Shown here in pieces: positions 2,931 through 63,891 of a stretch of DNA of 64,000 nucleotides. A program made the translations under genes and the position numbers. How positions within the stretch are numbered: the first letter of the stretch is position 1; every line of letters begins with the position of its first letter. Location of the stretch: the NCBI GenBank assembly GCA_041697335.1, contig JBGUGD010000014.1, forward strand, positions 17,910 through 81,909, read 5' to 3'. Below the pieces are notes generated by a model. The model ran no database searches. It was not told where the DNA came from and saw only the letters and a list, made by a program, of their open reading frames with translations. This stretch comes from Vampirovibrionaceae bacterium NZW_1234. Its GTDB lineage: Bacteria; Cyanobacteriota; Vampirovibrionia; Vampirovibrionales; JAGQHJ01.

Positions 2931-3653
2931 ATGGATTCTGCCTATATTATGATATACCGTTCTATGCCATGGCCCATTGGCCGTGATGTTCGCAACACAC
3001 CATTCTTGAAATTTTCTTCACAACAGCCCTCCTCATCCTCTTCGGAATTCACCAGAGCTATGGCTTTACCACGTGGCACTTATTACACTCCCAAAACCAC
3101 ACGCATGCGGCACGAAGAAGTTATTATGATCGGCATGGATCAAACGGCTATCACAAATGCCACCAGCGAAGTTCCAATTATCGGGACCAGAAGCTTGAAC
3201 CCTTGCTACGCCATTATTCTATTCAATCGCACTACCCGAACTGCAATCATGCGTCATCAACCCAGCCCCCCACCAGAAACATTCAATACCTTGATGACAT
3301 TGGTCCGCAAGGACCCCCGAGATAGAGTTGAAGTTCATCTTATTGGAGGCACCCCCAGCGATGATCCCGACCTGAATGAGCGAGCAAAAGACAACACGGA
3401 TCGACTCAACACTCTATATAACTTGGTTACGGCCATTGACAACACAAATAATACCGTTCTTAAGACCTGTGATTGCTATGACAAGCCGAAACCGATTGCT
3501 GTCGCCATCGATAGCAGAAATGGGCGCCTTATTCGAGGCTCAGATTTTTTCATTACACCTGAAGAAGGTGATAAAACCTTTGACTGTTTTCAAGATTACG
3601 GCTACATTAGCGATACTGTCGAAGTCTTTGACGGTACCATTCCCGAATATTAA
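2931..3653 (+). CDS. Hypothetical protein
   Basis: 240-aa ORF with no motif I recognise. Start codon uncertain; an internal Met at MALPRG... is plausible. Confidence 0.3.
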   Translation: MDSAYIMIYRSMPWPIGRDVRNTPFLKFSSQQPSSSSSEFTRAMALPRGTYYTPKTTRMRHEEVIMIGMDQTAITNATSEVPIIGTRSLNPCYAIILFNRTTRTAIMRHQPSPPPETFNTLMTLVRKDPRDRVEVHLIGGTPSDDPDLNERAKDNTDRLNTLYNLVTAIDNTNNTVLKTCDCYDKPKPIAVAIDSRNGRLIRGSDFFITPEEGDKTFDCFQDYGYISDTVEVFDGTIPEY

Positions 3654-3756: not shown

Positions 3757-5571
3757 TTGTTTATATATATTATATACAAGCTCCGCTTTGGCGATGCCTC
3801 AGGTAGGTCTTTGAAGGGTTCAATTGTGATTAGCACCAAAGATCTTCTCCTATTTTCCGCAATTCAAAATTTCTCTCGTTCGTCACGAGGGGGAATCTAT
3901 CGTGGGGTAGATGACTCAGGCTCATCTTCAAACAATCCATTCACAACCCTCATCTTCTTGTCGTTTTTAAAGAAATCCAAATCCACCCCAGTCAGTACAA
4001 GCCCCTTTGGCTCGCTCAATCTCCCCTTGAGCAGTGGTGGAAACACGCTCATCATTGGCGGTAATGGCGGGTTGAATTTAGGAGGATACGGCTACTGGAA
4101 TGGCTACGGCCTACCAAGCCAACCCCCAGGCGTGTGCTCCCAACCCGTGTATCCATCCCCTTGCAACACGGTTTGTCTCCCACCGCAACCTACACCGTTG
4201 CCAAGCCCATCACCCACGCCACTGCCACTCCCCACACCAACTCCAGTGCCAGCTCCAGTACCAGTCCCAACACCCGCTCCCACACCAACTCCAACGCCTG
4301 CCACACCCGTTGACCCTTCATCGATACTGGATTTTGCCCCCGTGCTGGTTGGCCGTCAGGCCAATAACAATTTGAATTACACCAATATCGATTCCACCTT
4401 TAACTCGAGTGAGAGCACCCTCAGTAAGACCTACGCTCTCAGCAATTCGCCCTGGGGCGCCAACTACCGTTCTCCTTATATGTATCAGGCCTATCAAGAG
4501 CAAGTCGATTTCTATGCAATGATGGGCCGTAATTTCGACCAAATTGATACCAATCGCGACGGACTGGCATCGGCTTCAGAAATCATGGCACTCGCTGCGA
4601 GATCTGGAAATACAACCAGTATTGAGGCTTCGGACTTTACCCCCGGAACAGCGCCTGCGGATATGACGCCTGTTCCCGTAGGTATTCATGCCCAAACCGG
4701 CGCCATTTTATTTAATGCTACAGCTAATCTTCAAGGAGGTTCATTAGCACCGACACCGAGCCTCAATAAAGCGTACTTTGAAAATCGAAGCCAAGACATC
4801 TTACTCTGGCAAAACTATAATAAATTTCTCTATAGTATCGGAGTCACGTTTGATCACTGGGATACCAATCGAGACGGCAGGTTAAGCAAAGCCGAGCTGG
4901 ATGCTGTTGCAGCCCGCTCAGGTGATCCAACCCGCATTGAAAAATCAGACTTGTTGGGTGCTTCAACGACTCAAACGAACAATACCGGATTCATCCAGTT
5001 CAACCCTGCTAACGTTGGCACCGATCAATTTGGCCAAGTGCAAATTAGCGGTATTTCTCTCGGTGCCAACCAACTGACCACAACGCTGATTGGCCAGTAT
5101 AATGCAACCCCCTGGCAAGAGAGTCAAAATATCACCAACATGTACAGCACTCTCTTCCAGAATTTTAGCCAAGTGGATACCAATAACGACGGTGTTCTCA
5201 GCAGAGCAGAACTCTCAGCCTTTACCGCCAAGTCTGGGGACACAACCAAGTTGGAGGTCACAGATTTTACCCCCGGTACTGTAACGCAGACATTTACCGG
5301 TGTTACCATAAGTTCGAGCAATGATGGGCTTATTTCAATTAATGGCGCCCCTATGTTCGGAACGGACTTCCAGATAACCCGCACAAATCTTCAACAGCGC
5401 CTAAGCGAGTCTGAAAACGGGACCAACTTCAGAAAAATCATGTATAACCTGGGACAAGTAACAAACCGAGTGGATACAAACGGTGATGGCACGCTCAGCC
5501 TTGCTGAACTGAACGCCTTTAAAGCCAGAGCCGGAGATATCACCAAACTGGATTTTGCAGACTTTGCCTGA
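3757..5571 (+). CDS. Large Pro/Thr-linker protein with four EF-hand-like (dockerin-like) Ca-binding repeats
   Basis: PTPLPSPSPTPLPLPTPTPVPAPVPVPTPAPTPTPTP linker, then four spaced repeats matching the 12-residue EF-hand loop: DTNRDGLASASE, DTNRDGRLSKAE, DTNNDGVLSRAE, DTNGDGTLSLAE. Each is followed by a conserved A(A/K)(R/K)SGDxTxIExSDFTPGT tail. No clear signal peptide at the annotated Met, so the start is uncertain. Confidence 0.6.
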   Translation: MFIYIIYKLRFGDASGRSLKGSIVISTKDLLLFSAIQNFSRSSRGGIYRGVDDSGSSSNNPFTTLIFLSFLKKSKSTPVSTSPFGSLNLPLSSGGNTLIIGGNGGLNLGGYGYWNGYGLPSQPPGVCSQPVYPSPCNTVCLPPQPTPLPSPSPTPLPLPTPTPVPAPVPVPTPAPTPTPTPATPVDPSSILDFAPVLVGRQANNNLNYTNIDSTFNSSESTLSKTYALSNSPWGANYRSPYMYQAYQEQVDFYAMMGRNFDQIDTNRDGLASASEIMALAARSGNTTSIEASDFTPGTAPADMTPVPVGIHAQTGAILFNATANLQGGSLAPTPSLNKAYFENRSQDILLWQNYNKFLYSIGVTFDHWDTNRDGRLSKAELDAVAARSGDPTRIEKSDLLGASTTQTNNTGFIQFNPANVGTDQFGQVQISGISLGANQLTTTLIGQYNATPWQESQNITNMYSTLFQNFSQVDTNNDGVLSRAELSAFTAKSGDTTKLEVTDFTPGTVTQTFTGVTISSSNDGLISINGAPMFGTDFQITRTNLQQRLSESENGTNFRKIMYNLGQVTNRVDTNGDGTLSLAELNAFKARAGDITKLDFADFA

Positions 5572-5728: not shown

Positions 5729-6541
5729 ATGGGAGATAATACAATGAAGCTAACCCCGATTCGCTTTGGGGCCATTGCGGTGACCAATGCAACGGTTTCG
5801 AGACAGCAAACTTCACTGGTTACTTTGGGACGTAATACCCAGGCAAATGCAAAGGCCAGCAAAGAGACGAAAATTCAAGTAACTTTGAAAGCATCTGAGG
5901 ACAAGGATCTGGTGTTTAAAACCATCCCTGGCCTACAACCAGGTGCATTAAGAGAGGAACCCATCACGTTAACCTTTTTTCAAAAAGACGGTTCACTTTC
6001 TGTCCAATCCACCTTCAAGGAAGACAAAAAAGCTGTTGTAGGTCAGGAAATTGTCGGCTATAAAGATGTTTTCAAAGGTTATGAAACAGTACAAGCGGGC
6101 TTACCCGCTTGCTGGGAAGGCCCTGTTCCTGAACCCTACGAGCAGCCGGTCTATGAGCGAGAGCCAATCTATGGGCCAAAGATGGGAATTCAACGACAAG
6201 ACAGCCACAAGACAATTGCTCTGGATACTCCTGAAGCATTCCAAGATTTACTGACGCTAACCGAGCAGATTCCGCTGGATAAATCCATCAAGGGTCCCAT
6301 TAAAAAGTTACTTTCTCATACATTCAAGGCTTTTGCCGATCAGAAAGCCAAAGCACTGGAAGCCGAACTGGCTGCACTGGGAGAAAGTAAAGCGGGTGCG
6401 CTGGAAAAATTGAAGCAGGATAAGGCCAGGGAATTAGCAGAACAAACTCGTCAGCTCACAGAAAGCCATGACACAAAGACAAAAAGCCTGAGCAGCACAC
6501 AGGAACTCTTAGCTGCACTCAAAAAGAAACTGCTTCGTTGA
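5729..6541 (+). CDS. Hypothetical protein with C-terminal coiled-coil
   Basis: 270 aa. The C-terminus KAKALEAELAALGESKAGALEKLKQDKARELAEQTRQL is heptad-like. No catalytic motif recognised. Confidence 0.4.
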   Translation: MGDNTMKLTPIRFGAIAVTNATVSRQQTSLVTLGRNTQANAKASKETKIQVTLKASEDKDLVFKTIPGLQPGALREEPITLTFFQKDGSLSVQSTFKEDKKAVVGQEIVGYKDVFKGYETVQAGLPACWEGPVPEPYEQPVYEREPIYGPKMGIQRQDSHKTIALDTPEAFQDLLTLTEQIPLDKSIKGPIKKLLSHTFKAFADQKAKALEAELAALGESKAGALEKLKQDKARELAEQTRQLTESHDTKTKSLSSTQELLAALKKKLLR

Positions 6542-22456: not shown

Positions 22457-24031
22457 TTAATCAAAAAGGGCGTCAAACATATCCGAAATTTCGGAGAAAA
22501 ACCCGCCCATTGCTGAACTACTTTTCTTATCGTCAAGCATATCCATCAACATGACTGTGGTCATCATATCGTTCCCACTTCTGCTCGAACTCTGAGGCCG
22601 GTATTGAGGACGTGGTTGTGGACGGGCCCCCTGGGCTGATGCTGGCCGTGCCCGTCTTGGACGAGATGGAGCAGAAGCCGGCTGGCTCGGGGTATTCATC
22701 AACATCATCAACAACAACAATTCAGTGTCGTCATCACCTTTTTTCTTGCTGGTACCGCTTGCACCCGTGGTGCCTACCGGGCCGGATGCGCCACTGGTAC
22801 CAGTAGTGCCCGTCGTCCCGCCGGGACCCGATGTACCTGTTGCACCTGTGGTTCCCCCAGGGCCGGATGTGCCCGTAGCTCCAGTCGTTCCCCCTGGCCC
22901 CGATGTGCCTGTTGCACCCGTGGTTCCCCCAGGGCCGGATGCGCCACTGGTACCAGTAGTGCCCGTCGTCCCACCGGGGCCAGACGTTCCACTAGAGCCG
23001 CTTGTCCCCGTGGGACCCGTGGTTCCGCTGGGACCGGTTACCCCATCAATGACGGCTGTGGGGTCATTCACCAATGGCAAGCCAGCTCTGGCTCTTAAAT
23101 CGTTAATGGTCTCATGCGTCGGGGTATCATCCATGTACCATATGGTCAGATTGACGCCATTTTTCACAGTGACTTCATCACCACTGGACCGATCGGTGAG
23201 AATACAGTCCCCGTTGGCATCAAAGCGGACATCAATATCGGTGTCCATATAGATAACGTCGGCATTATCGGCACTATTAATAACCAGCCTGTTCTGCAGC
23301 CCCTGACTACTGGCTCCAGACTCCGTCATATCGATGCGATCAATATTATTGCCATTTAAATTCAGGTTAAATACGTTGTTTGCTGCGGTGGCCCCCAATC
23401 GAGTGAAAGTGTCCCGCTTCGACGCAGACGTATCGATATTTACCTGATTCTGGTTACCCAGGATGGACCAGCTGGGTGGGGACTGAAACACAGTGGTATC
23501 CATGGTGGCATCTGCCTTTAAATTCAATGTATTCTGGTTACCCAGGACATCGATATACATCATGCCACTGCCATCCGTATTTAAAGTGTTTCCAGTACCG
23601 GATAGCGAAACAGAACTGCCAAAATTCCCGAGATTCGAAAAGGTCAACGTATTGTTATTGCTGTTCTCCCGCAGGTCAATTCCCTTAAACGTGCCCGATA
23701 CGTTAAACCTATTATTCTGCACACTGGCAAAATGAAAGTAGGCATAGGTAGAATCACCGGAAATATTAACCTGATTATTATTGAACTGATAGTTGAGGGT
23801 TGAAAACGGAAATTCCTGAGATTGGCTGCTGCCAAAGTACATGGCACCTAGTTGCTGTTCCTGGATGGATGTCAAATCAAAGGTCTGCCCAACAGCATCC
23901 ATAAACTGCCTGCCATGGGCTACAGGTAAATTATTGCTCAAGAAAAACCGGATAAAATCTGAATTCGACATCTCTTCGCTTCTCTTTACTCTCCGTTTTC
24001 CAGCCGAGTAACATCGGCATGCAGATCCCAA
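22457..24031 (-). CDS. Surface-fibre-like protein: N-terminal beta-helix-type repeats (LGNQN / N-rich), central collagen-like G-X-T repeats, Pro/Arg-rich plus Met-rich C-terminus
   Basis: The repeat run [55 protein letters not shown]... is an uninterrupted Gly-X-Y run of about 35 triplets. The N-terminus holds repeated NxxLxLxG / LGNQN segments. Likely start at the internal Met MSNSDF. Confidence 0.55.
22770..23010. repeat. Imperfect tandem 36-nt repeats (with a larger ~40-nt duplicated block) encoding the collagen-like region
   Basis: The + strand shows the unit ggnccngatgtncc(t/c)gt(t/a)gc(a/t)cc(t/a)gt(g/c)gttcccccn about four times. The block gggccggatgcgccactggtaccagtagtgcccgtcgtccc occurs at about 22778 and 22938. 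Confidence 0.7.
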
Positions 24032-33424: not shown

Positions 33425-34108
33425 TTATCGCACCCAGGGTACAATGACCCCACGTTTGGCCATCTCACAGGCAAACAAAATGCCATTGGCACTGTAAATC
33501 CAGCGATTCCGAGGAATTTGCTCAGAAAGCGGCCGGAAGTATTGCTGTAAAGACGGATCCTGCAACCAAGCCGGGTTAAACCCTTCCGGTAAACCATAGG
33601 GATTATTGGCCGGAAGTCCACCGCCCATTCCAAAGCCAGGCGTTCCAGTAATCCCAGGCGTTACCACCCCAGGAACACCAATGGCAGGCATGCCTGTAAT
33701 TCCCACGGTGGGTGCCGCCCCAAAGCCAACTCCTGGTGTCACGCCATAAGAGTATCCAGGTATAACACCTGTCGCTCCATAAGGAGCATAGCCACCTGCG
33801 ACACCGGGCATCACAGTCGCCCCGTAAGGTGCATAACCTGAAACGACGCCAGGCATCGTTGGAACGCTACCCCCAGCAGACATGGCTCCAAGAGGCAACG
33901 TAAAGGTTATGCTTGTGGGAGCACCGGCTCCAGCCGAAATCATTGGGAAAGTTGTCCCTGCGGGAACACCACCTGTGGATCCACTGAATAGAATAGGTGC
34001 ACCGACACCCGGACTGCCACCAATTGCTCCCCCAGTGGGATTAGACCCAACGCTGCAGTTAAAATTAAACGTGCAGCTCATTTGCATATAACTCATGCTG
34101 TCCTCCAA
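33425..34108 (-). CDS. Gly/Pro/Ala/Tyr-rich low-complexity protein
   Basis: Repeats such as GYAPYGAT and GVxPGxxG. An AT-rich putative promoter region lies upstream (34109..34401). Confidence 0.4.
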   Translation of the reverse strand: MEDSMSYMQMSCTFNFNCSVGSNPTGGAIGGSPGVGAPILFSGSTGGVPAGTTFPMISAGAGAPTSITFTLPLGAMSAGGSVPTMPGVVSGYAPYGATVMPGVAGGYAPYGATGVIPGYSYGVTPGVGFGAAPTVGITGMPAIGVPGVVTPGITGTPGFGMGGGLPANNPYGLPEGFNPAWLQDPSLQQYFRPLSEQIPRNRWIYSANGILFACEMAKRGVIVPWVR

Positions 34109-39245: not shown

Positions 39246-39788
39246 TTACAAGGATTTCTCAATCACATACATATCCAACCGAACGACACCCAGCAGCATA
39301 GAGCCTTTATCCTCTTTGATTGTGGGGTCTTTTGCGGGCAATGAGCCCAGATTCTTCAGCTCTACCATTTGTACCACCACATTGGGAAAGTGCTGAATAA
39401 CCTGGGACAGAAATTTCTGGATGGAAAAATAGGGTCCACTCAACTGCACCGTAATAGGAATTCGCTTCACCATAGACGGAAACCGGGGATCAGAAACCGC
39501 CTTGGAAGGATCGCCTGCGATTTCAGTGAGATAAATCCCTGCTTCCACACTCTGGTTAAACAACGGAGATACAATACGAGACTGCCAGGCCTCTGTATGT
39601 TTTAAGCGAAGCTCCGGCAACGTCGCCAGTGGCTTGGGGATGTAATTAACCGGGTCATTCAACTCCACTTGATAACGTCCATGGGCTTCAATGGCCGGCT
39701 TGAGCACCAGCACCGAAATCACCGAGGAAGCAGCCAGCATGGCCAACAACAGAAACCATTGACGAAGCGTCAATCCGGATGTGCTCAT
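39246..39788 (-). CDS. pilO: Type IV pilus assembly protein PilO-like
   Basis: 180 aa with N-terminal TM LTLRQWFLLLAMLAASSVISVLVL followed by a periplasmic domain. Placed immediately after the PilM-N gene, with start and stop overlapping. Confidence 0.5.
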   Translation of the reverse strand: MSTSGLTLRQWFLLLAMLAASSVISVLVLKPAIEAHGRYQVELNDPVNYIPKPLATLPELRLKHTEAWQSRIVSPLFNQSVEAGIYLTEIAGDPSKAVSDPRFPSMVKRIPITVQLSGPYFSIQKFLSQVIQHFPNVVVQMVELKNLGSLPAKDPTIKEDKGSMLLGVVRLDMYVIEKSL

Positions 39789-41239
39789 GGTTTTTTAGTC
39801 TCCTGCTTAGCTTGAGCCTGACCCGAGCCTGTTGCATCTTGAAGAATTTTCCCCGTAAAGCTGAATTGGCTTAAAATCTTCTCCCCATCCGAAGGCATCA
39901 CAAATCGTTTTTGGGCTTTGATTTGAAACGGCTTGAGCTCAGAGGCGGAAACAAGTGCGTCGATAAAGGCATTTGCCTTTTGGGCTTGCGCCGCCTTTCC
40001 GGAAATGTTCACCCGCTCAGGCATCTCAACCCGCAAGTAATCAATCTGGACTTGAGCCGCATTTTTATTAATCACGTCCATCAGTTTTTGATAAAACCCA
40101 TTCTGCTGGTGTAAAGCTGAAATGGTAGATGACAGTGCTTCATCACGTTGGCGGAGCTGAGCATCCAGCTGTGTATTTTGAAAAATATAATACCCGCTCG
40201 TCCCTAAAACCCCGAGCATCACAAAAAACGAGATTATCAATAAAAAGCGCAATACCGTTGCTTTGGCACGCACCGCTGTTCGATGAGAAACATGATGCTT
40301 GGCTGAAGCCCCACGTCTGGATGCTAAAAAATCCCAGGCCAAAGGGAAAGGCACTTCCTGCTTTAATGCAGCCCCTAGAGCCGCTGCCGATGGCTGATTG
40401 GGGTAACTTCCATACAAGGGCCCTAAAACCGCCTGACGAACAGGAGCGCCCAACTTCAGCTGAAGCAGATCCATCGGCTGCTTGACACCCTGCTCGGACC
40501 AGGCAAACCAGAGATTCGGCTGACTGATGCCCATTCCTAACATGGGTTCCATGAGTCGCTCCTGCATACTCGCCATATCCGCGGGTATGGTAAACGTGCC
40601 AATGTAGATCAGGTTGGTCCCCTGCCAAATGGTCTGCCACGTTTGAGAACCGACCACACCAAAGCAACCCCACACCGCATCGGAACCTAGGCGCCGCAGC
40701 AATGCGTCCAACACGCCTGAGGCCGCCATGCCCCGCAAGACCGCCAAGGGCAAAATATCCACTCCCTGCAAGGGATAGCCTGCCTCTTCAAAGACTTGAA
40801 AAAAGTGTTTAAGCTCATTATCACCATAAAACGCATACGCAATGGCCGCATGGTCCCCATGTTGCCAAAGCATAGAGTATTGCACAATGGGCGTATCTCC
40901 GGCCAAAACCCCTTCTTCAGAAATTAATTGGGGTAAGCCCTCTCTCAAGGCATGCACATCGCCCACCGAAAAGGCACGGGTGGCTAAAAAAGGTGTGTAA
41001 AATGTTAAATACACGGGATAGGCAACATCGGGCTGTCCTAAAGCAGCAAAAAGCCCACGAATCGCTGCCACCAACGTGGGTGTATCCAGAATCCGTTTGC
41101 CGTCGTGCGCCATCGTCGCTGGGGGCAATGGCTGGTGTTCATAGGCTTGGAGAGAAAAATCCTCAGCCGAAACTTTGACCCCACTAATATGGGTGGGCGA
41201 GATGGAAATACCGATTAAACTGGATGACGACTTGCTCAC
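39785..41239 (-). CDS. pilMN: PilM-PilN fusion (actin-like ATPase domain, then TM and coiled-coil)
   Basis: N-terminus LIGISISPTHISGVKV resembles the PilM start (iGiDiGs..ik.v). An internal TM (VLRFLLIISFFVMLGVLGTSGYYIF) plus a coiled-coil and C-terminal domain resemble PilN. Confidence 0.55.
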   Translation of the reverse strand: MSKSSSSLIGISISPTHISGVKVSAEDFSLQAYEHQPLPPATMAHDGKRILDTPTLVAAIRGLFAALGQPDVAYPVYLTFYTPFLATRAFSVGDVHALREGLPQLISEEGVLAGDTPIVQYSMLWQHGDHAAIAYAFYGDNELKHFFQVFEEAGYPLQGVDILPLAVLRGMAASGVLDALLRRLGSDAVWGCFGVVGSQTWQTIWQGTNLIYIGTFTIPADMASMQERLMEPMLGMGISQPNLWFAWSEQGVKQPMDLLQLKLGAPVRQAVLGPLYGSYPNQPSAAALGAALKQEVPFPLAWDFLASRRGASAKHHVSHRTAVRAKATVLRFLLIISFFVMLGVLGTSGYYIFQNTQLDAQLRQRDEALSSTISALHQQNGFYQKLMDVINKNAAQVQIDYLRVEMPERVNISGKAAQAQKANAFIDALVSASELKPFQIKAQKRFVMPSDGEKILSQFSFTGKILQDATGSGQAQAKQETKKP

Positions 41240-54099: not shown

Positions 54100-54981
54100 G
54101 TGTATATGAGGAAGCAGCAACCAGTCCCGGTAGGTGACGGCTTTGACGCGACCTTGGCCTATCTTTTTTATGGCCTGGATCCGGCACATGACGTCTTAAA
54201 CGAATCGACCTACATTTTTGATATCCTGAACTCCGAGTCCAAAACCAAAGGCCTTTCAATGACGCGTGTCTTAGGCGATGACATTCAATTCGTCAGCCGT
54301 TGGCCTGAAAACAAATTCCCCCTCAAAATATTTATTAGCCCGGATTATGGGGTCCTCTTCTCTCCGGGAGAATTAAAACAACTGCGTACCATTATTGGCG
54401 AGGTTGTCGGTGAGATTGAAGCCATTAACCCGGACCAGTTTCGCTTTACGTATGTGTCCCAGCGTCACCAAGCCGATATTGTGATGCTTTGCCGTCGGGA
54501 TGATAAAAAATTACTTCATCACACGTTTCCCGCACTTGGTGCCGAAAAAGAACTCACATACGCCGAAATCACATTGACGATTACCACCCAAGTCAGTCAT
54601 GACAGTGTGCGGTATCAAGTGATGCACCAACTCCTTCACGCCTTAGGCATGTTGGGACACAGTGATAATCCCTTTGACTCGGGCTACATCACCTGGAATC
54701 CTCAACAGGCACTCCTGACGCCTCGGGATATTGCCACCCTGAGGTTACTGTATCGCTGTCCCATTGGTATGAGTGAGTCCGATTTAAAGTTACTTTGGGA
54801 TCAATATCAGGCTCGCTACCCTGGGCTCAAGCTCAATGCCCAAGTACAGGCTGTCCTTGGGAACCCGAATCAGGTTCCAACGCCAATGCCTGCCATGTTT
54901 GGTACTGCAACACTGTCCGCCCAAGAACGCCAGCTGCAAGAGTCAGTGCGCCATAGCCTTCGCCACGTTAAAACCGCCTGA
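54100..54981 (+). CDS. Hypothetical protein with degenerate metzincin-like motif
   Basis: HQLLHALGMLGHSD resembles HExxHxxGxxH, but with Q in place of the catalytic E and the register shifted by one. Confidence 0.35.
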   Translation: MYMRKQQPVPVGDGFDATLAYLFYGLDPAHDVLNESTYIFDILNSESKTKGLSMTRVLGDDIQFVSRWPENKFPLKIFISPDYGVLFSPGELKQLRTIIGEVVGEIEAINPDQFRFTYVSQRHQADIVMLCRRDDKKLLHHTFPALGAEKELTYAEITLTITTQVSHDSVRYQVMHQLLHALGMLGHSDNPFDSGYITWNPQQALLTPRDIATLRLLYRCPIGMSESDLKLLWDQYQARYPGLKLNAQVQAVLGNPNQVPTPMPAMFGTATLSAQERQLQESVRHSLRHVKTA

Positions 54982-60042: not shown

Positions 60043-62121
60043 TTAGCCTTCCAATCCCTCATCCTGAGGAACGGTCAACCAGGGATAAATGAAATCCTGG
60101 GCATCAATGAAGCGATCAAAGGGACTGGAGTTAGCGGCCAGGGCAGTAAAAACGTTATTGGTTTCAGTACCCAGATCAATCATCCCATCGCCATCGGGAT
60201 CCACCAGCGAAGCACTGGTCCCGAAGAGATCCTTCATCCATGAAGCCTGGTTCAATACATTTTCAATGGCTTGTGCAATCAAATATTGACTTACTTGGCC
60301 ATTGTTGCCTGCAGCTTCACGTCCCAAGGCCAATTCTTCGGCACTGACTTTATTGTCGTTGTTAGTATCGTACTTTTTGAACCAACTGCGAACCGTCGAT
60401 GCCGTTTCTGGCATCCAATCAAACTGCACTGCTTTCGTATCTTCTATGGAAAGCCGGTCAGAATCACCGAATGCCGCTGCCAAGTGATTGGCTTCGCTAT
60501 AGCGACGATTTTCACCACTGCAACCGCAGTCATAATTCAACTTACCATCACCGTTGATATCCAGAACTGGTGAGCCCATCTTGAGAAGATCTGCCAGATG
60601 GCGAGCTGCATTGGCAAAGTCATCCTGATTTTTGCTTGCAAAGAACTTGGCTGCTTCACTCAGTTCCCGAACACTCAAAGCGTTATCTTTATTTTTGTCA
60701 AAATCATTGGCTTTGGTCATTGCGAAAATCAGGTTGTTAACATTGACTTCATCAAACTTGGGCAGGAAGGGCATGTAACTGCCAATTTTACGTAATAACC
60801 CGGTTAAAGGCTGAGTTCTGGCATTGAAGGTTTCACCCAGAATACCTTCCGGCAAATCATCTGCTTTAACACCCTTGGCACCGGATTTGACTTCAATACT
60901 CAGGCTGTTACCGTCCACTTCAGAGCCTTGATGAGACTTCACAATCGTAGTCATCCCATCCGGAGTTGTGATTTCAACCTGATCGGCTGCAATCAACTTG
61001 TAAACAGTGCCATCTTCTGTGGTATGTGTTGCTTTCGCCGTTGTCAGCGTAATGGTCTTCAGAGCAAACGGTGCATCTTTGTCCGTAATCTTGAGTTGAG
61101 CGATATTGTCGGCATTCAACTCAACAACGTTGGCCCCGGATTTGATGGAAAGCGTTCTCGGCAATAAGGCAGATCCTTTTACTTCAGCCAGGGCTTGCTG
61201 ATAGGCTTCATTATTAATGGCCGTGATGTCGACAGGATCCTCTTCACCGTCGATCTCTTCGCCCTCGTCAACCCCTTCGATGTCGCCGCCTTCTAAAATG
61301 GTTACCGGGGCACTATCTTTGAGAGGAGCAAGATTACGTTGATAACCAACGGAAATCATAATTTCTGCTAAACCATTGTCCTCATCATTATGATAGACAA
61401 TAAATTCCTGTAAGCCCGTGATTTGTTCTTCCGTCTCAACACTTGTATCTAAGGGCAGCGTGTATTTTTCACCCTTGGCACCGGTAATCTGGTTCCCGAC
61501 CAGAGTTGCTGATTTATTGGCAGCCACCAGTGTTGAAGTCGGATTGTTGACAGGTGCAGGCGTAATATCATCGTCATCGTCATCATCCTCGTCGTCATCG
61601 ACATCTTGGACGTTATCCGTTTTCTTGGGGCTGGCGGCCTTCAGTATGGCGCTCAAGATCAACATATTCACCAAATCATCGGTCAAACCGAATAACGATC
61701 CTAAACCTTGATTGCTCTTCGGTAAGCCACTGATGCTGTTACCGGCAATGGCCGTGGCTGAACCGAAGAAATTGCGAAGTGCGCCTAAGCCACTGCCTCG
61801 AGCCAGTGTGGAAGCAGGAAAGAAACCGCCCGGGGATGCAAGTGCAAGCTTGGCTCTCGGATCGGCATAGGCGTTGGGAAATCCTTGAGGGTTGCTAAAC
61901 CAGGAGTTGATAGGTGTGTTAGGCATGCCATAAGCCATTTCAGGCAGCATGGTGAAATCCACCATGTCAAAGGGCATGGGTTCAATTCTCGGATCAGAAT
62001 ACCCTCCAGGATTCACAGGAGGAAAAGAAGCACCCGGATAATTTCCAGGAGCACCATAAAATGCGGCCCCAGGAAAGCCACCTGCTTGATAGGCTGATCT
62101 GACAAAATCCATCACACACAA
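60043..62121 (-). CDS. Large low-complexity surface protein: G/P/Y-rich N-terminus, poly-Asp/Glu tract, C-terminal EF-hand/dockerin-like loops
   Basis: N-terminus GGFPGAAFYGAPGNYPGASFPP..., acidic run DVDDDEDDDDDDDITP. Loops: DKNKDNALSVRE, DTNNDNKVSAEE (canonical 12-residue EF loops with N at position 6), and the degenerate DINGDGKLNYDC and DPDGDGMIDLGTE. Confidence 0.5.
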   Translation of the reverse strand: MCVMDFVRSAYQAGGFPGAAFYGAPGNYPGASFPPVNPGGYSDPRIEPMPFDMVDFTMLPEMAYGMPNTPINSWFSNPQGFPNAYADPRAKLALASPGGFFPASTLARGSGLGALRNFFGSATAIAGNSISGLPKSNQGLGSLFGLTDDLVNMLILSAILKAASPKKTDNVQDVDDDEDDDDDDDITPAPVNNPTSTLVAANKSATLVGNQITGAKGEKYTLPLDTSVETEEQITGLQEFIVYHNDEDNGLAEIMISVGYQRNLAPLKDSAPVTILEGGDIEGVDEGEEIDGEEDPVDITAINNEAYQQALAEVKGSALLPRTLSIKSGANVVELNADNIAQLKITDKDAPFALKTITLTTAKATHTTEDGTVYKLIAADQVEITTPDGMTTIVKSHQGSEVDGNSLSIEVKSGAKGVKADDLPEGILGETFNARTQPLTGLLRKIGSYMPFLPKFDEVNVNNLIFAMTKANDFDKNKDNALSVRELSEAAKFFASKNQDDFANAARHLADLLKMGSPVLDINGDGKLNYDCGCSGENRRYSEANHLAAAFGDSDRLSIEDTKAVQFDWMPETASTVRSWFKKYDTNNDNKVSAEELALGREAAGNNGQVSQYLIAQAIENVLNQASWMKDLFGTSASLVDPDGDGMIDLGTETNNVFTALAANSSPFDRFIDAQDFIYPWLTVPQDEGLEG

Positions 62122-62232
62122 TCCTTTTGTTTACACACATCTCTGTATCAATAAAAAAACAGGGATGTAAAAGATTGCTCAAAAACAACGCCTTGTTAAA
62201 TAATATTTACATATAAAATATATAACTAAGAC

Positions 62233-63891
62233 TTAGTGAGGCAGGGGTAGGGTTACCGTAAAGAGATACCCCAAGCCAGGGGTTGAGTCGAATGTCAGAT
62301 TGCCACCATGAAGTTCAATCAGTTGTTTTGCAAGAGCGACACCATGCCCCAAACCGTGACTCATCTGTGCTGACGTGTGGAAATCGAAGTCTTCAGACAA
62401 GGCATCCGGTATGTGTTCCGACACACGCTGGCCCGAATCCTTGATCGTCAAGACTAGAGCACTCTGCTGAGACTGCTTTTGAATAGTCACTTCCACACCC
62501 CCATGCGTTGGGCTTAATTGAATCCCATGTTTAATGAGTTGATACAGGATTTGACGCAACCGGATTGGATCAGCCAAGACCCTTGTTAAATTGGGCTGAA
62601 CATCAAACGTCAAGTTTATCTCACGGCTCTGAGCCAATTCTCTGAAAATTTTTTCAAGATTTGTAACCAGCGCCGGCAATTCAATCCACTCGTAAAACAA
62701 GGTCATCTCGCCAGATTCCAGCTTGGCCATATCCATAGTCGTATTCATCATGTCCAGTAAATAGCGACTACTGAGTCTCATATTTTCGACAAAGCGTGTC
62801 ACTTTCGGGTCAGCATGCTGATGTAAAACGCTGTCCAGCAGGTCTGCATAACCAATTATCGCCGTCAAAGGGGTTCGACACTGATGTGACAGCATGGCCA
62901 AAAATTGTGTCTGACGCTGCTTTAACACCCAGAGTTCATGGCATTTTTCTTCCAACATCAGGCCCAATTGACTGAAGTCGGCCAGGCAAGAGACCTGGGA
63001 TACCATGACTTTGAGCAATTCCAAAGCCTCTGGCGACCATGAAACATCTTCTCCCCGGCACCAAACCTGAAACAGACCCAGACATTGTCCCTGAACTCGA
63101 ACCGGAACATTAATGACTTGAGTAACCTTCGCGTCCAACCACTCTGCTCGATCCACAGGGTGTCCCGCGGCCAAAAGGTCTTTGGCATGCCAGACTCCCC
63201 ATTGGGATAGTACAGCAGTATGGCGCATCAGAGGCAAATTACCGGATTGAACAGATTCCTGGGTATTCGAAGATGCCGACGGAAAAAACGTATAGGTTTC
63301 ATTCGCTTCACCATCACAGGCGTACCACCAATAATGCACGGATTCGGTCTGACTCATCACGCGAATCTGGTTCAAAATCTGTTCGATCAGTTGCTGTGCG
63401 TCAGACCGCTTTGGTTTATCCTGAAAAAAATGACACACGTTAGCAAAAACCGCATTTTTTGCGTATGTTGCCATCGGCAGTGTCGTCAGACAGGCGTCCT
63501 GATGCTCTGCCTCAGGTACCCACAGGATAATCTGGGGCGTCCCCCCGGCATGTTTATAGCAGACACATCGAACGTTTTGGGTATACCCTGCGGGGTGAAG
63601 GAACTGTAGTTCAATGTGGGCCAAATCGGCCTCTCCAATCTCATCGGCCAGGTAAGTATAAAAACTACCGATCTGTGCCAGCTCCGAAGCCAGTCGTGAT
63701 TTTATGCTCTGTCCGAGAATCGGCTGCCCAGCAATGCCCAAAAAAGAGAGTGCGGCGGGGTTTAAATAAACAACCCGATCATGTTGATCGATGCCCAACA
63801 CGACATCCGATAATTGGTCCACGAGCTGCCGAAACGGATTGAATTCCTCAGGAATGGAGGAACACTGGGGTTCCTCGGAGTATGCCAACAT
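62233..63891 (-). CDS. Sensor histidine kinase with N-terminal PAS/GAF sensing domains
   Basis: H-box [22 protein letters not shown], and G-box/ATP-lid [35 protein letters not shown]. Confidence 0.85.
   Translation of the reverse strand: [552 protein letters not shown]

Follow-up and report, generated by a model that had tools for sequence, protein, structure and literature searches.

A lineage-specific EF-hand protein with an acidic orphan region and a putative calmodulin-like module in a Vampirovibrionia contig

What is the role of a large, strongly acidic protein with EF-hand-type loops in a barely studied bacterial lineage, and on which side of the membrane does it act? This question is raised by an open reading frame (ORF) on the minus strand of Vampirovibrionaceae bacterium NZW_1234, located at 60043..62121 of a 64-kb stretch of contig JBGUGD010000014.1, which is called the window in the following. 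Here, we report that the ORF is a genuine coding gene and that its product, judged by profile score and loop pattern, belongs to the EF-hand superfamily. In the best-supported reading, to which we give about even chances, a calmodulin-like module that binds Ca2+ serves as a switch or buffer and is joined to a long, acidic and in part disordered orphan region, the protein residing in the cytoplasm or at a location left open; that Ca2+ is bound, that the module switches its conformation and where the protein resides are inferences. Coordinates of all features are collected in Table 1.

The assignment to the EF-hand superfamily is carried by profile searches and by the loops themselves. With the curated gathering threshold as criterion, the Pfam models EF-hand_1/5/6/7 (PF00036/PF13202/PF13405/PF13499) all match the full protein above threshold, with E-values of about 2e-9. 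The bit scores of the full protein are 36.6 for EF-hand_1 (cut-off 25.4), 36.8 for EF-hand_5 (25.9) and 37.9 for EF-hand_7 (30), while the isolated C-terminal module reaches 43.5 bits against EF-hand cut-offs of 25-30 and is hit by EF-hand_1 in four stretches. The EF-hand loops proposed in the initial annotation are thus truly present. A loop was defined by 12 residues with ligands at positions 1, 3, 5, 9 and 12 (Glu or Asp at 12) and a hydrophobic residue at position 8. A strict PROSITE-type pattern is satisfied by the loops beginning at amino acid (aa) 472 (DKNKDNALSVREL) and aa 582 (DTNNDNKVSAEEL), which keep all liganding positions including Glu12 as well as the hydrophobic residue at position 8. 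The loops beginning at aa 518 and 638 have no acidic residue at position 12, which bears out the earlier description of two canonical and two degenerate loops. When aa 440-689 were shuffled 20,000 times, the number of loose loops never exceeded two (four are observed), and two or more strict loops occurred in one shuffle (two are observed). Translation of the window in six frames gives 131 segments that reach 100 aa or more, and of these only this ORF and the one at 3757..5571 contain DxNxD-type loops.

The four loops are probably arranged in two lobes, each with the predicted order helix, loop A, helices, loop B, helix and a tail motif (FGDSDRLSIEDT and NSSPFDRFIDAQDF); the loop-to-loop distances are 46, 64 and 56 aa. 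The same layout recurs in a related Vampirovibrionia metagenome-assembled genome (MAG), where an ORF on contig CALAJO010000092.1 (L002:5148-5963, plus strand) codes for a standalone protein of 244-271 aa that consists of the four-loop EF-hand module only and represents an internal duplication of a unit of ~105 aa, with SGQPDILEPSDL and SGSPNQIETSDF as its tail motifs. This locus, termed L002, was retrieved via MetH and not by a search with the 689-aa protein. The ORF lies about 4 kb upstream of metH, in the same orientation relative to metH as our gene in the window, and adjoins an orthologue (41% identity) of the window gene 54100..54981. Its product aligns end to end with aa 429-676 of the 689-aa protein, with 27% identity over about 250 aa (BLASTP E-value 7e-7 with and 2e-10 without composition adjustment), and all four loops as well as the two tail motifs fall in register. 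Because a standalone protein aligns in this way, the C-terminal 250 aa are, as far as can be told from the alignment, an autonomous and conserved domain. The N-terminal 430 aa are a lineage-specific addition without detectable relatives.

That an orphan frame of this kind might be a chance or decayed ORF rather than a gene is suggested by the absence of homologues outside the gene's own record. This explanation is effectively refuted, and we give it a negligible probability. The frame stays open over 692 codons at 47% GC, and its codon usage, expressed as log-odds relative to the conserved genes of the window, amounts to +0.28 in the annotated frame versus -0.16 to -0.88 in the five other frames and remains above zero wherever a 150-codon window is placed in the gene. 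As the bias is frame-specific and extends over the whole length, the gene is real; in addition, a ribosome-binding site precedes the ATG, and the C-terminal domain is conserved in another genome. The ORF of 692 aa described in the initial annotation exists when counted from a TTG, but the ATG at 62112 is the likelier start, yielding 689 aa: the AAGGA element lies upstream of it, and the NCBI annotation of the gene holds the identical 689-aa product (P0001). The stop-to-stop frame adds three codons upstream of the TTG and no more, and therefore a signal peptide concealed further upstream is ruled out.

Beyond L002, the protein stands alone. When 5.8 billion proteins were searched by word index with the full-length query, the query itself was the sole match, and an exhaustive phmmer/HMMER search of 1.84 billion representatives returned the query and one generic EF-hand protein with a marginal E-value of 9.5e-4. 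The word-indexed search with the C-terminal module alone was uninformative, since it returned no match at E<=10 and missed the protein itself. Nothing was found in a scan of genome contigs with the protein, in metagenome scans with the alignment "A1" and with the L002 protein, or in a scan of viral contigs, and there were zero matches in PHROGs and PADLOC. By these sequence comparisons, we regard it as an orphan protein. The missing relatives in very large databases largely reflect the poor sampling of the lineage. The neighbouring histidine kinase gene illustrates this point: the PAS-GAF histidine kinase 62233..63891, directly upstream on the same (minus) strand, has its best match at 34% identity within the 5.8 billion proteins, none above, and its own sequence was not returned. 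The MetH of the window is 80% identical to that of a Vampirovibrionales MAG, the corresponding values being 77% for an "uncultured cyanobacterium" MAG and 69% for a further MAG from the Cyanobacteria, and the host lineage, which belongs to the non-photosynthetic Cyanobacteria of the Vampirovibrionia, is without a close sequenced relative. Many ORFs of the window lack a Pfam domain.

The protein encoded at 3757..5571 had been placed with ours in a lineage-specific family by the initial annotation. Each of its exact 105-aa repeats ends in an EF-hand loop followed by a tail, DTNxDGxLSxAEL-xAxxA(R/K)SGDxTxIExSDF. Direct similarity between the two proteins is weak (BLASTP E-value 0.03 composition-adjusted, 1e-4 unadjusted), and phmmer found no direct match between them. 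The L002 protein provides a bridge, as it also matches the 3757..5571 protein (BLASTP 3e-4 and 4e-8, respectively). A hidden Markov model (HMM) of the 105-aa repeat scores 11 bits on the 689-aa protein vs 29.6 bits on the L002 protein, and hhalign aligned loop B1 and tail of the profile built from the 689-aa and L002 proteins to the end of the repeat with a probability of 90% (E-value 1.8e-6, 43 columns). Taken by sequence, the two window proteins probably share a lineage-specific EF-hand-plus-tail unit ("EF-loop + SGxxxxIExxDF") by a remote link, and together with L002:5148-5963 we group them provisionally as a Vampirovibrionales repeat family of that name. The proposed family thus gains from the bridge and the profile alignment, while the weak direct similarity limits it: the two are remote relatives, not close paralogues. 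They also resemble each other in style: both have a short hydrophobic helix, a G/P/Y segment of low complexity and a linker of acidic or Pro/Thr type. The 3757..5571 protein exceeds the SPARC_Ca_bdg Pfam threshold via its summed EF-hand repeats. Mini-helices rich in Leu/Met and flanked by D/K were seen in the 689-aa protein (DDLVNMLILSAILK), in the 3757..5571 protein (KDLLLFSAIQNF, TTLIFLSFLKKSK) and, in similar form, in the 22457..24031 protein. Directly upstream of 3757..5571, the product of 2931..3653 (plus strand) has a sub-threshold match to protein N-terminal asparagine amidohydrolase of the eukaryote type (18.8 vs 24 bits).

Table 1. Features of the 689-aa protein gene and its remote relative (positions refer to the window).
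Feature	Position	Strand	Remarks
Coding sequence, 689-aa acidic protein	60043..62112	minus	ATG 62112..62110, stop 60045..60043; ORF listing extends to TTG at 62121
AAGGA, ribosome-binding-site-like	62122..62126	minus	9 nt upstream of ATG; read from sequence
Low-complexity head, aa 1-130	61723..62112	minus	rich in G/P/A/F/Y; GFPG, GAPG, YPG, PGG motifs; no Pfam match
Short hydrophobic helix SLFGLTDDLVNMLILSAILKAA, aa 139-160	61633..61698	minus	19-residue Kyte-Doolittle maximum 1.54; low-confidence model helix 145-159
Poly-Asp tract DVDDDEDDDDDDD, aa 170-182	61567..61605	minus	13 residues, net charge -12
Acidic orphan middle, aa 183-428	60829..61566	minus	EGGDIEGVDEGEEIDGEEDPVD linker at aa 274-295; known domain and homologue: none found
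Putative calmodulin-like module, aa 429-676	60085..60828	minus	four EF-hand-type units, two lobes of ~110 aa; homologous to L002:5148-5963
Loop A1, aa 472-483, DKNKDNALSVRE	60664..60699	minus	canonical EF-hand loop
Loop B1, aa 518-529, DINGDGKLNYDC	60526..60561	minus	degenerate, Cys at position 12
Lobe 1 tail motif, aa 548-559, FGDSDRLSIEDT	60436..60471	minus	equivalent of SGxxxxIExSDF in L002 and 3757..5571 proteins
Loop A2, aa 582-593, DTNNDNKVSAEE	60334..60369	minus	canonical EF-hand loop; strongest Pfam match
Loop B2, aa 638-649, DPDGDGMIDLGT	60166..60201	minus	degenerate, Thr at position 12, Glu at position 13
Lobe 2 tail motif, aa 661-674, NSSPFDRFIDAQDF	60091..60132	minus	alignment with L002 protein
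Remote relative	3757..5571	plus	four exact 105-aa repeats; G/Y-rich stretch and Pro/Thr linker precede

The architecture is unusual: an orphan N-terminal part of 430 aa with a poly-Asp tract is combined with a family-specific motif at the lobe ends and with the absence of relatives. The whole protein has an isoelectric point (pI) of 4.3 and a net charge of about -51. The head is composed of 14% A, 14% G, 13% P and 9% F, and with AlphaFold2 pLDDT values (predicted local distance difference test) of about 30-38 it is predicted to be mostly unstructured. The codons of the poly-Asp tract are a mixture of GAT, GAC and GAG, and the tract is thus not a pure triplet repeat. In the middle region, strands are predicted in a low-confidence model. 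All three low-complexity regions listed in the initial annotation, namely the G/P/Y-type head, the poly-Asp tract and the DxNxD loops, were recovered, and its statement that there is no obvious signal peptide holds as well: the maximum of the 10-residue Kyte-Doolittle hydropathy within the first 45 aa is 0.69, compared with 2.1-3.6 for window proteins that have a clear signal or anchor sequence. A transmembrane segment is absent, the best 19-residue window including two Asp residues. A transmembrane anchor at aa 139-160 was considered and rejected, as the helix is too short and charged, with the two Asp inside.

How the protein would work can be outlined as follows. Ca2+ would occupy the two canonical sites (aa 472-483 and aa 582-593), and the degenerate partner loops (aa 518-529 and aa 638-649) would mainly complete each EF-hand pair structurally, as its second half; the loop sequences suggest at most one working site per lobe. 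Once Ca2+ is bound, the module would become ordered or change its shape, by analogy with calmodulin-like domains, and would thereby serve the orphan N-terminal 430 aa as a Ca2+ switch or buffer. The poly-Asp tract may contribute low-affinity cation binding. We slightly favour a sensor or buffer in the cytoplasm because both the 689-aa protein and its L002 homologue, in which neither a signal peptide nor a transmembrane segment was found, are without Sec, Tat or lipoprotein signal and without membrane segment. The missing export signals fit the role of the cytoplasmic sensors or buffers calerythrin and CabD.

Several observations weigh against this picture. The only canonical loop of the L002 protein is B1, its A-position loops not being canonical, whereas A1 and A2 are canonical in the 689-aa protein, and thus it is not conserved which of the sites would bind Ca2+. 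In classical EF-hand pairs the loops are spaced by roughly 36-40 aa, which is exceeded by the 46 and 56 aa found here. A PDB profile search with the alignment of the 689-aa and L002 proteins gave calmodulin-like domains of calcium-dependent protein kinases (CDPKs) as best matches, followed by CaBP1, S100 and polcalcin, but the matches are marginal (E-values 0.013-0.1) and span two to three EF-hands; a PDB sequence search with the full protein returned spurious poly-Asp and weak EF-hand matches only. AlphaFold2, run on single sequences, yielded a mean pLDDT of about 35 for the full protein as well as for aa 446-689. DSSP assigned helices flanking each loop in both of these low-confidence models, but neither model is usable for fold comparison, and the four-EF-hand fold is therefore a prediction from sequence. 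With respect to location, the extreme acidity, the G/P/Y segments of low complexity and the Pro/Thr linker present in the 3757..5571 protein are more typical of extracytoplasmic proteins, and other surface-like orphans of the window are also devoid of signal peptides, hinting at non-classical export.

The latter points lead to a different explanation, which we consider possible but less probable than the reading above: the protein would be exported independently of a signal peptide, via a type I-like route, the flagellar apparatus or a type IV secretion system (T4SS), to act as a Ca2+-stabilised surface adhesin, scaffold or prey effector whose module folds only in high external or host Ca2+. 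The combination of a pI of 4.3, a C-terminal Ca-binding module and no N-terminal signal resembles the logic of type I secretion substrates. The G/P/Y head, the linker of the 3757..5571 protein with its weak match to the TonB proline-rich region, and the signal-less surface-like orphans of the window, with collagen-like repeats or rich in G/P/Y, are in agreement with export, and the sole NCBIfam match of the protein is XopAW, an EF-hand effector family of the type III secretion system (T3SS). Precedents exist in the secreted calsymin CasA (PMC9132961) and in the XopAW effectors, and for Vampirovibrio chlorellavorus T4SS-based predation with effector delivery has been proposed (PMC4451040). Yet our host is only a relative of the predatory Vampirovibrio, the MetH of the closest genome found, a Vampirovibrionales MAG, being 80% identical, and XopAW scores 25 bits, well short of its cut-off of 120, with Dockerin_1 likewise below its cut-off. 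Furthermore, the protein has no recognised export signal, anchor, adhesin, cohesin or RTX domain, and it is flanked by genes for TPR, LptC-like and histidine kinase proteins and not by secretion-system genes. The extracellular adhesin or scaffold of the initial annotation is therefore unsupported, not refuted; the L002 homologue is signal-less, too. A bolder version, which appears quite improbable, joins the 689-aa and 3757..5571 proteins and perhaps those of 22457..24031 and 33425..34108 into a Vampirovibrionales-specific, non-classically exported set that forms an attachment structure or is injected into prey, with the module switched by external or prey Ca2+ and the Leu/Met helix as an export or assembly tag.

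It is also conceivable, though unlikely, that the EF-hand-like loops are structural relics in a fast-evolving, largely disordered acidic orphan, e.g., a polyanionic spacer or condensate former, whose function is independent of specific Ca2+ binding. Two of the four loops are degenerate, the canonical ones differ between our protein and L002, homologues are lacking for 60% of the protein, and confidence is low throughout both AlphaFold2 models. The GC content at third codon positions (GC3) of 0.46, below the 0.56 of conserved window genes, fits a young or weakly constrained gene. Counter-evidence comes from the module: two loops retain every canonical liganding position, and module, loop positions and tail motifs are conserved in a genome where MetH is 77% and the neighbouring gene only 41% identical. 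We thus prefer the Ca2+-binding, calmodulin-like module over these alternatives.

In comparison with known families, the closest candidate fold is that of calmodulin, apicomplexan and plant CDPKs and CaBP1, with which the protein shares canonical loops of 12 residues and, by prediction, four helix-loop-helix units in two lobes. An EF-hand pair of the CDPK N-lobe with a similarly long inter-loop linker is among the best PDB profile matches. Differences are the one degenerate loop per lobe, the longer linkers (46 and 56 aa), the SGxxxxIExxDF-type motif at the lobe ends, which does not occur in classical EF-hand proteins, and the fusion to a 430-aa orphan region. Calsequestrin, Asp-rich biomineralisation proteins and SPARC have a poly-acidic tract or acidic domain, SPARC combining an acidic domain with an EF-hand pair. 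The union of poly-acidic tract and EF-hand module in the 689-aa protein is reminiscent of these, but homology is confined to the EF-hand; SPARC_Ca_bdg scores 14.8 bits on it (cut-off 22), and FG-GAP is sub-threshold as well.

Bacterial EF-hand proteins are known from the cytoplasm, the periplasm and the secreted fraction (table in PMC9132961). EfhP of P. aeruginosa is periplasmic and has 2 EF-hands with a dissociation constant (Kd) of 13.7 uM, CasA of R. etli is secreted, and CabD and calerythrin of actinomycetes are cytoplasmic (PMC9132961). Our protein shares with all four the canonical DxDxDG-type loops of Ca2+ sensors or buffers (PMC9132961), but a sequence relationship is undetectable beyond the EF-hand loop. 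Unlike EfhP, it has no signal peptide, and compared with the characterised bacterial proteins it is 3-4 times larger and differs by its disordered head, its poly-Asp tract and its orphan middle.

Three further families were tried and rejected. The initial annotation had called the loops dockerin-like, and the loops at 518 and 638 (DxNGDGxL/I-N/D) do resemble the Ca-binding loop of type I dockerins (PF00404). However, Dockerin_1 reaches 12.7 bits on isolated parts of the protein against a cut-off of 22.9 and gives no match at E<=1 with the full protein. The layout differs too: a dockerin is a compact pair of duplicates of ~22 residues in a module of ~60-70 aa, while the loops here are 46-64 aa apart and separated by EF-hand-type helices, so the designation does not hold. 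No cohesin domain was found among the 40 window proteins scanned against Pfam. XopAW (NF041410), the sole NCBIfam model touched by the 689-aa protein (25.4 bits) and by the 3757..5571 protein (57 bits vs 120), likewise comprises bacterial EF-hand proteins without Sec signal, but the similarity is limited to the EF-hand region, and T3SS genes are absent among the scanned proteins of the window. RTX-type substrates of type I secretion (PF00353, GGxGxD repeats) were dismissed, as HemolysinCabind matches neither the full protein (E<=1) nor its parts (E<=10); there is no adjacent ABC/MFP exporter among the TPR, LptC-like and histidine-kinase neighbours.

In kind, the protein is an ordinary bacterial EF-hand protein that is lineage-specific and has an unusual orphan architecture; on the evidence as it stands, it is useful for annotation and unsurprising. 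Only a small number of EF-hand proteins are known from bacteria, and these are poorly understood; Vampirovibrionia have barely been studied. A module that occurs both standalone and fused to orphan regions would be a tractable entry to Ca2+ sensing in this group, and if the protein were exported, it would bear on the molecular basis of prey attachment or attack.

Turning to the remaining genes, the flanks of the locus comprise two TPR proteins, an LptC-like protein, the PAS-GAF histidine kinase, a trypsin-like protease, an alpha/beta hydrolase, MetH and GyrA; secretion-system genes do not flank it. The ORF 22457..24031 (minus strand) encodes a 524-aa orphan in which Asn-rich repeats of beta-helix-like type are combined with a GTTGxxG tract that resembles collagen (Pfam Collagen E-value 6e-9). 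It has no signal peptide, matches Scl/Lcl adhesin models far below cut-off and bears two D/K-flanked Met/Leu-rich mini-helices. The 227-aa ORF 33425..34108 (minus strand) is extremely rich in G/P/Y/A/V, e.g., GYAPYGATVMPGVAGGYAPYGATGVIPGYSYG, and has neither a Pfam/NCBIfam match nor a signal peptide. The products of 54100..54981 (plus strand) and L002:6463-7347, 41% identical between the genomes and without Pfam/NCBIfam match, share a zincin-like motif, HQLLHALGMLGH (HNMLHALGIYGH in L002), with Gln/Asn in place of the usual catalytic Glu of HExxH. An N-terminal "RFGAV" family joining 5729..6541 with L002 paralogues was rejected, as there is no similarity. By eye, two overlapping ORFs of 484 and 180 aa at 39246..41239 (minus strand) resemble a PilM/PilN fusion and PilO of the type IV pilus; a Pfam match at E<=1e-5 is absent. 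The 64-kb window contains no tRNA or tmRNA genes and no Rfam families above the gathering score, and a promoter/terminator scan gave no excess over chance. The cumulative GC skew falls monotonically over the entire window.

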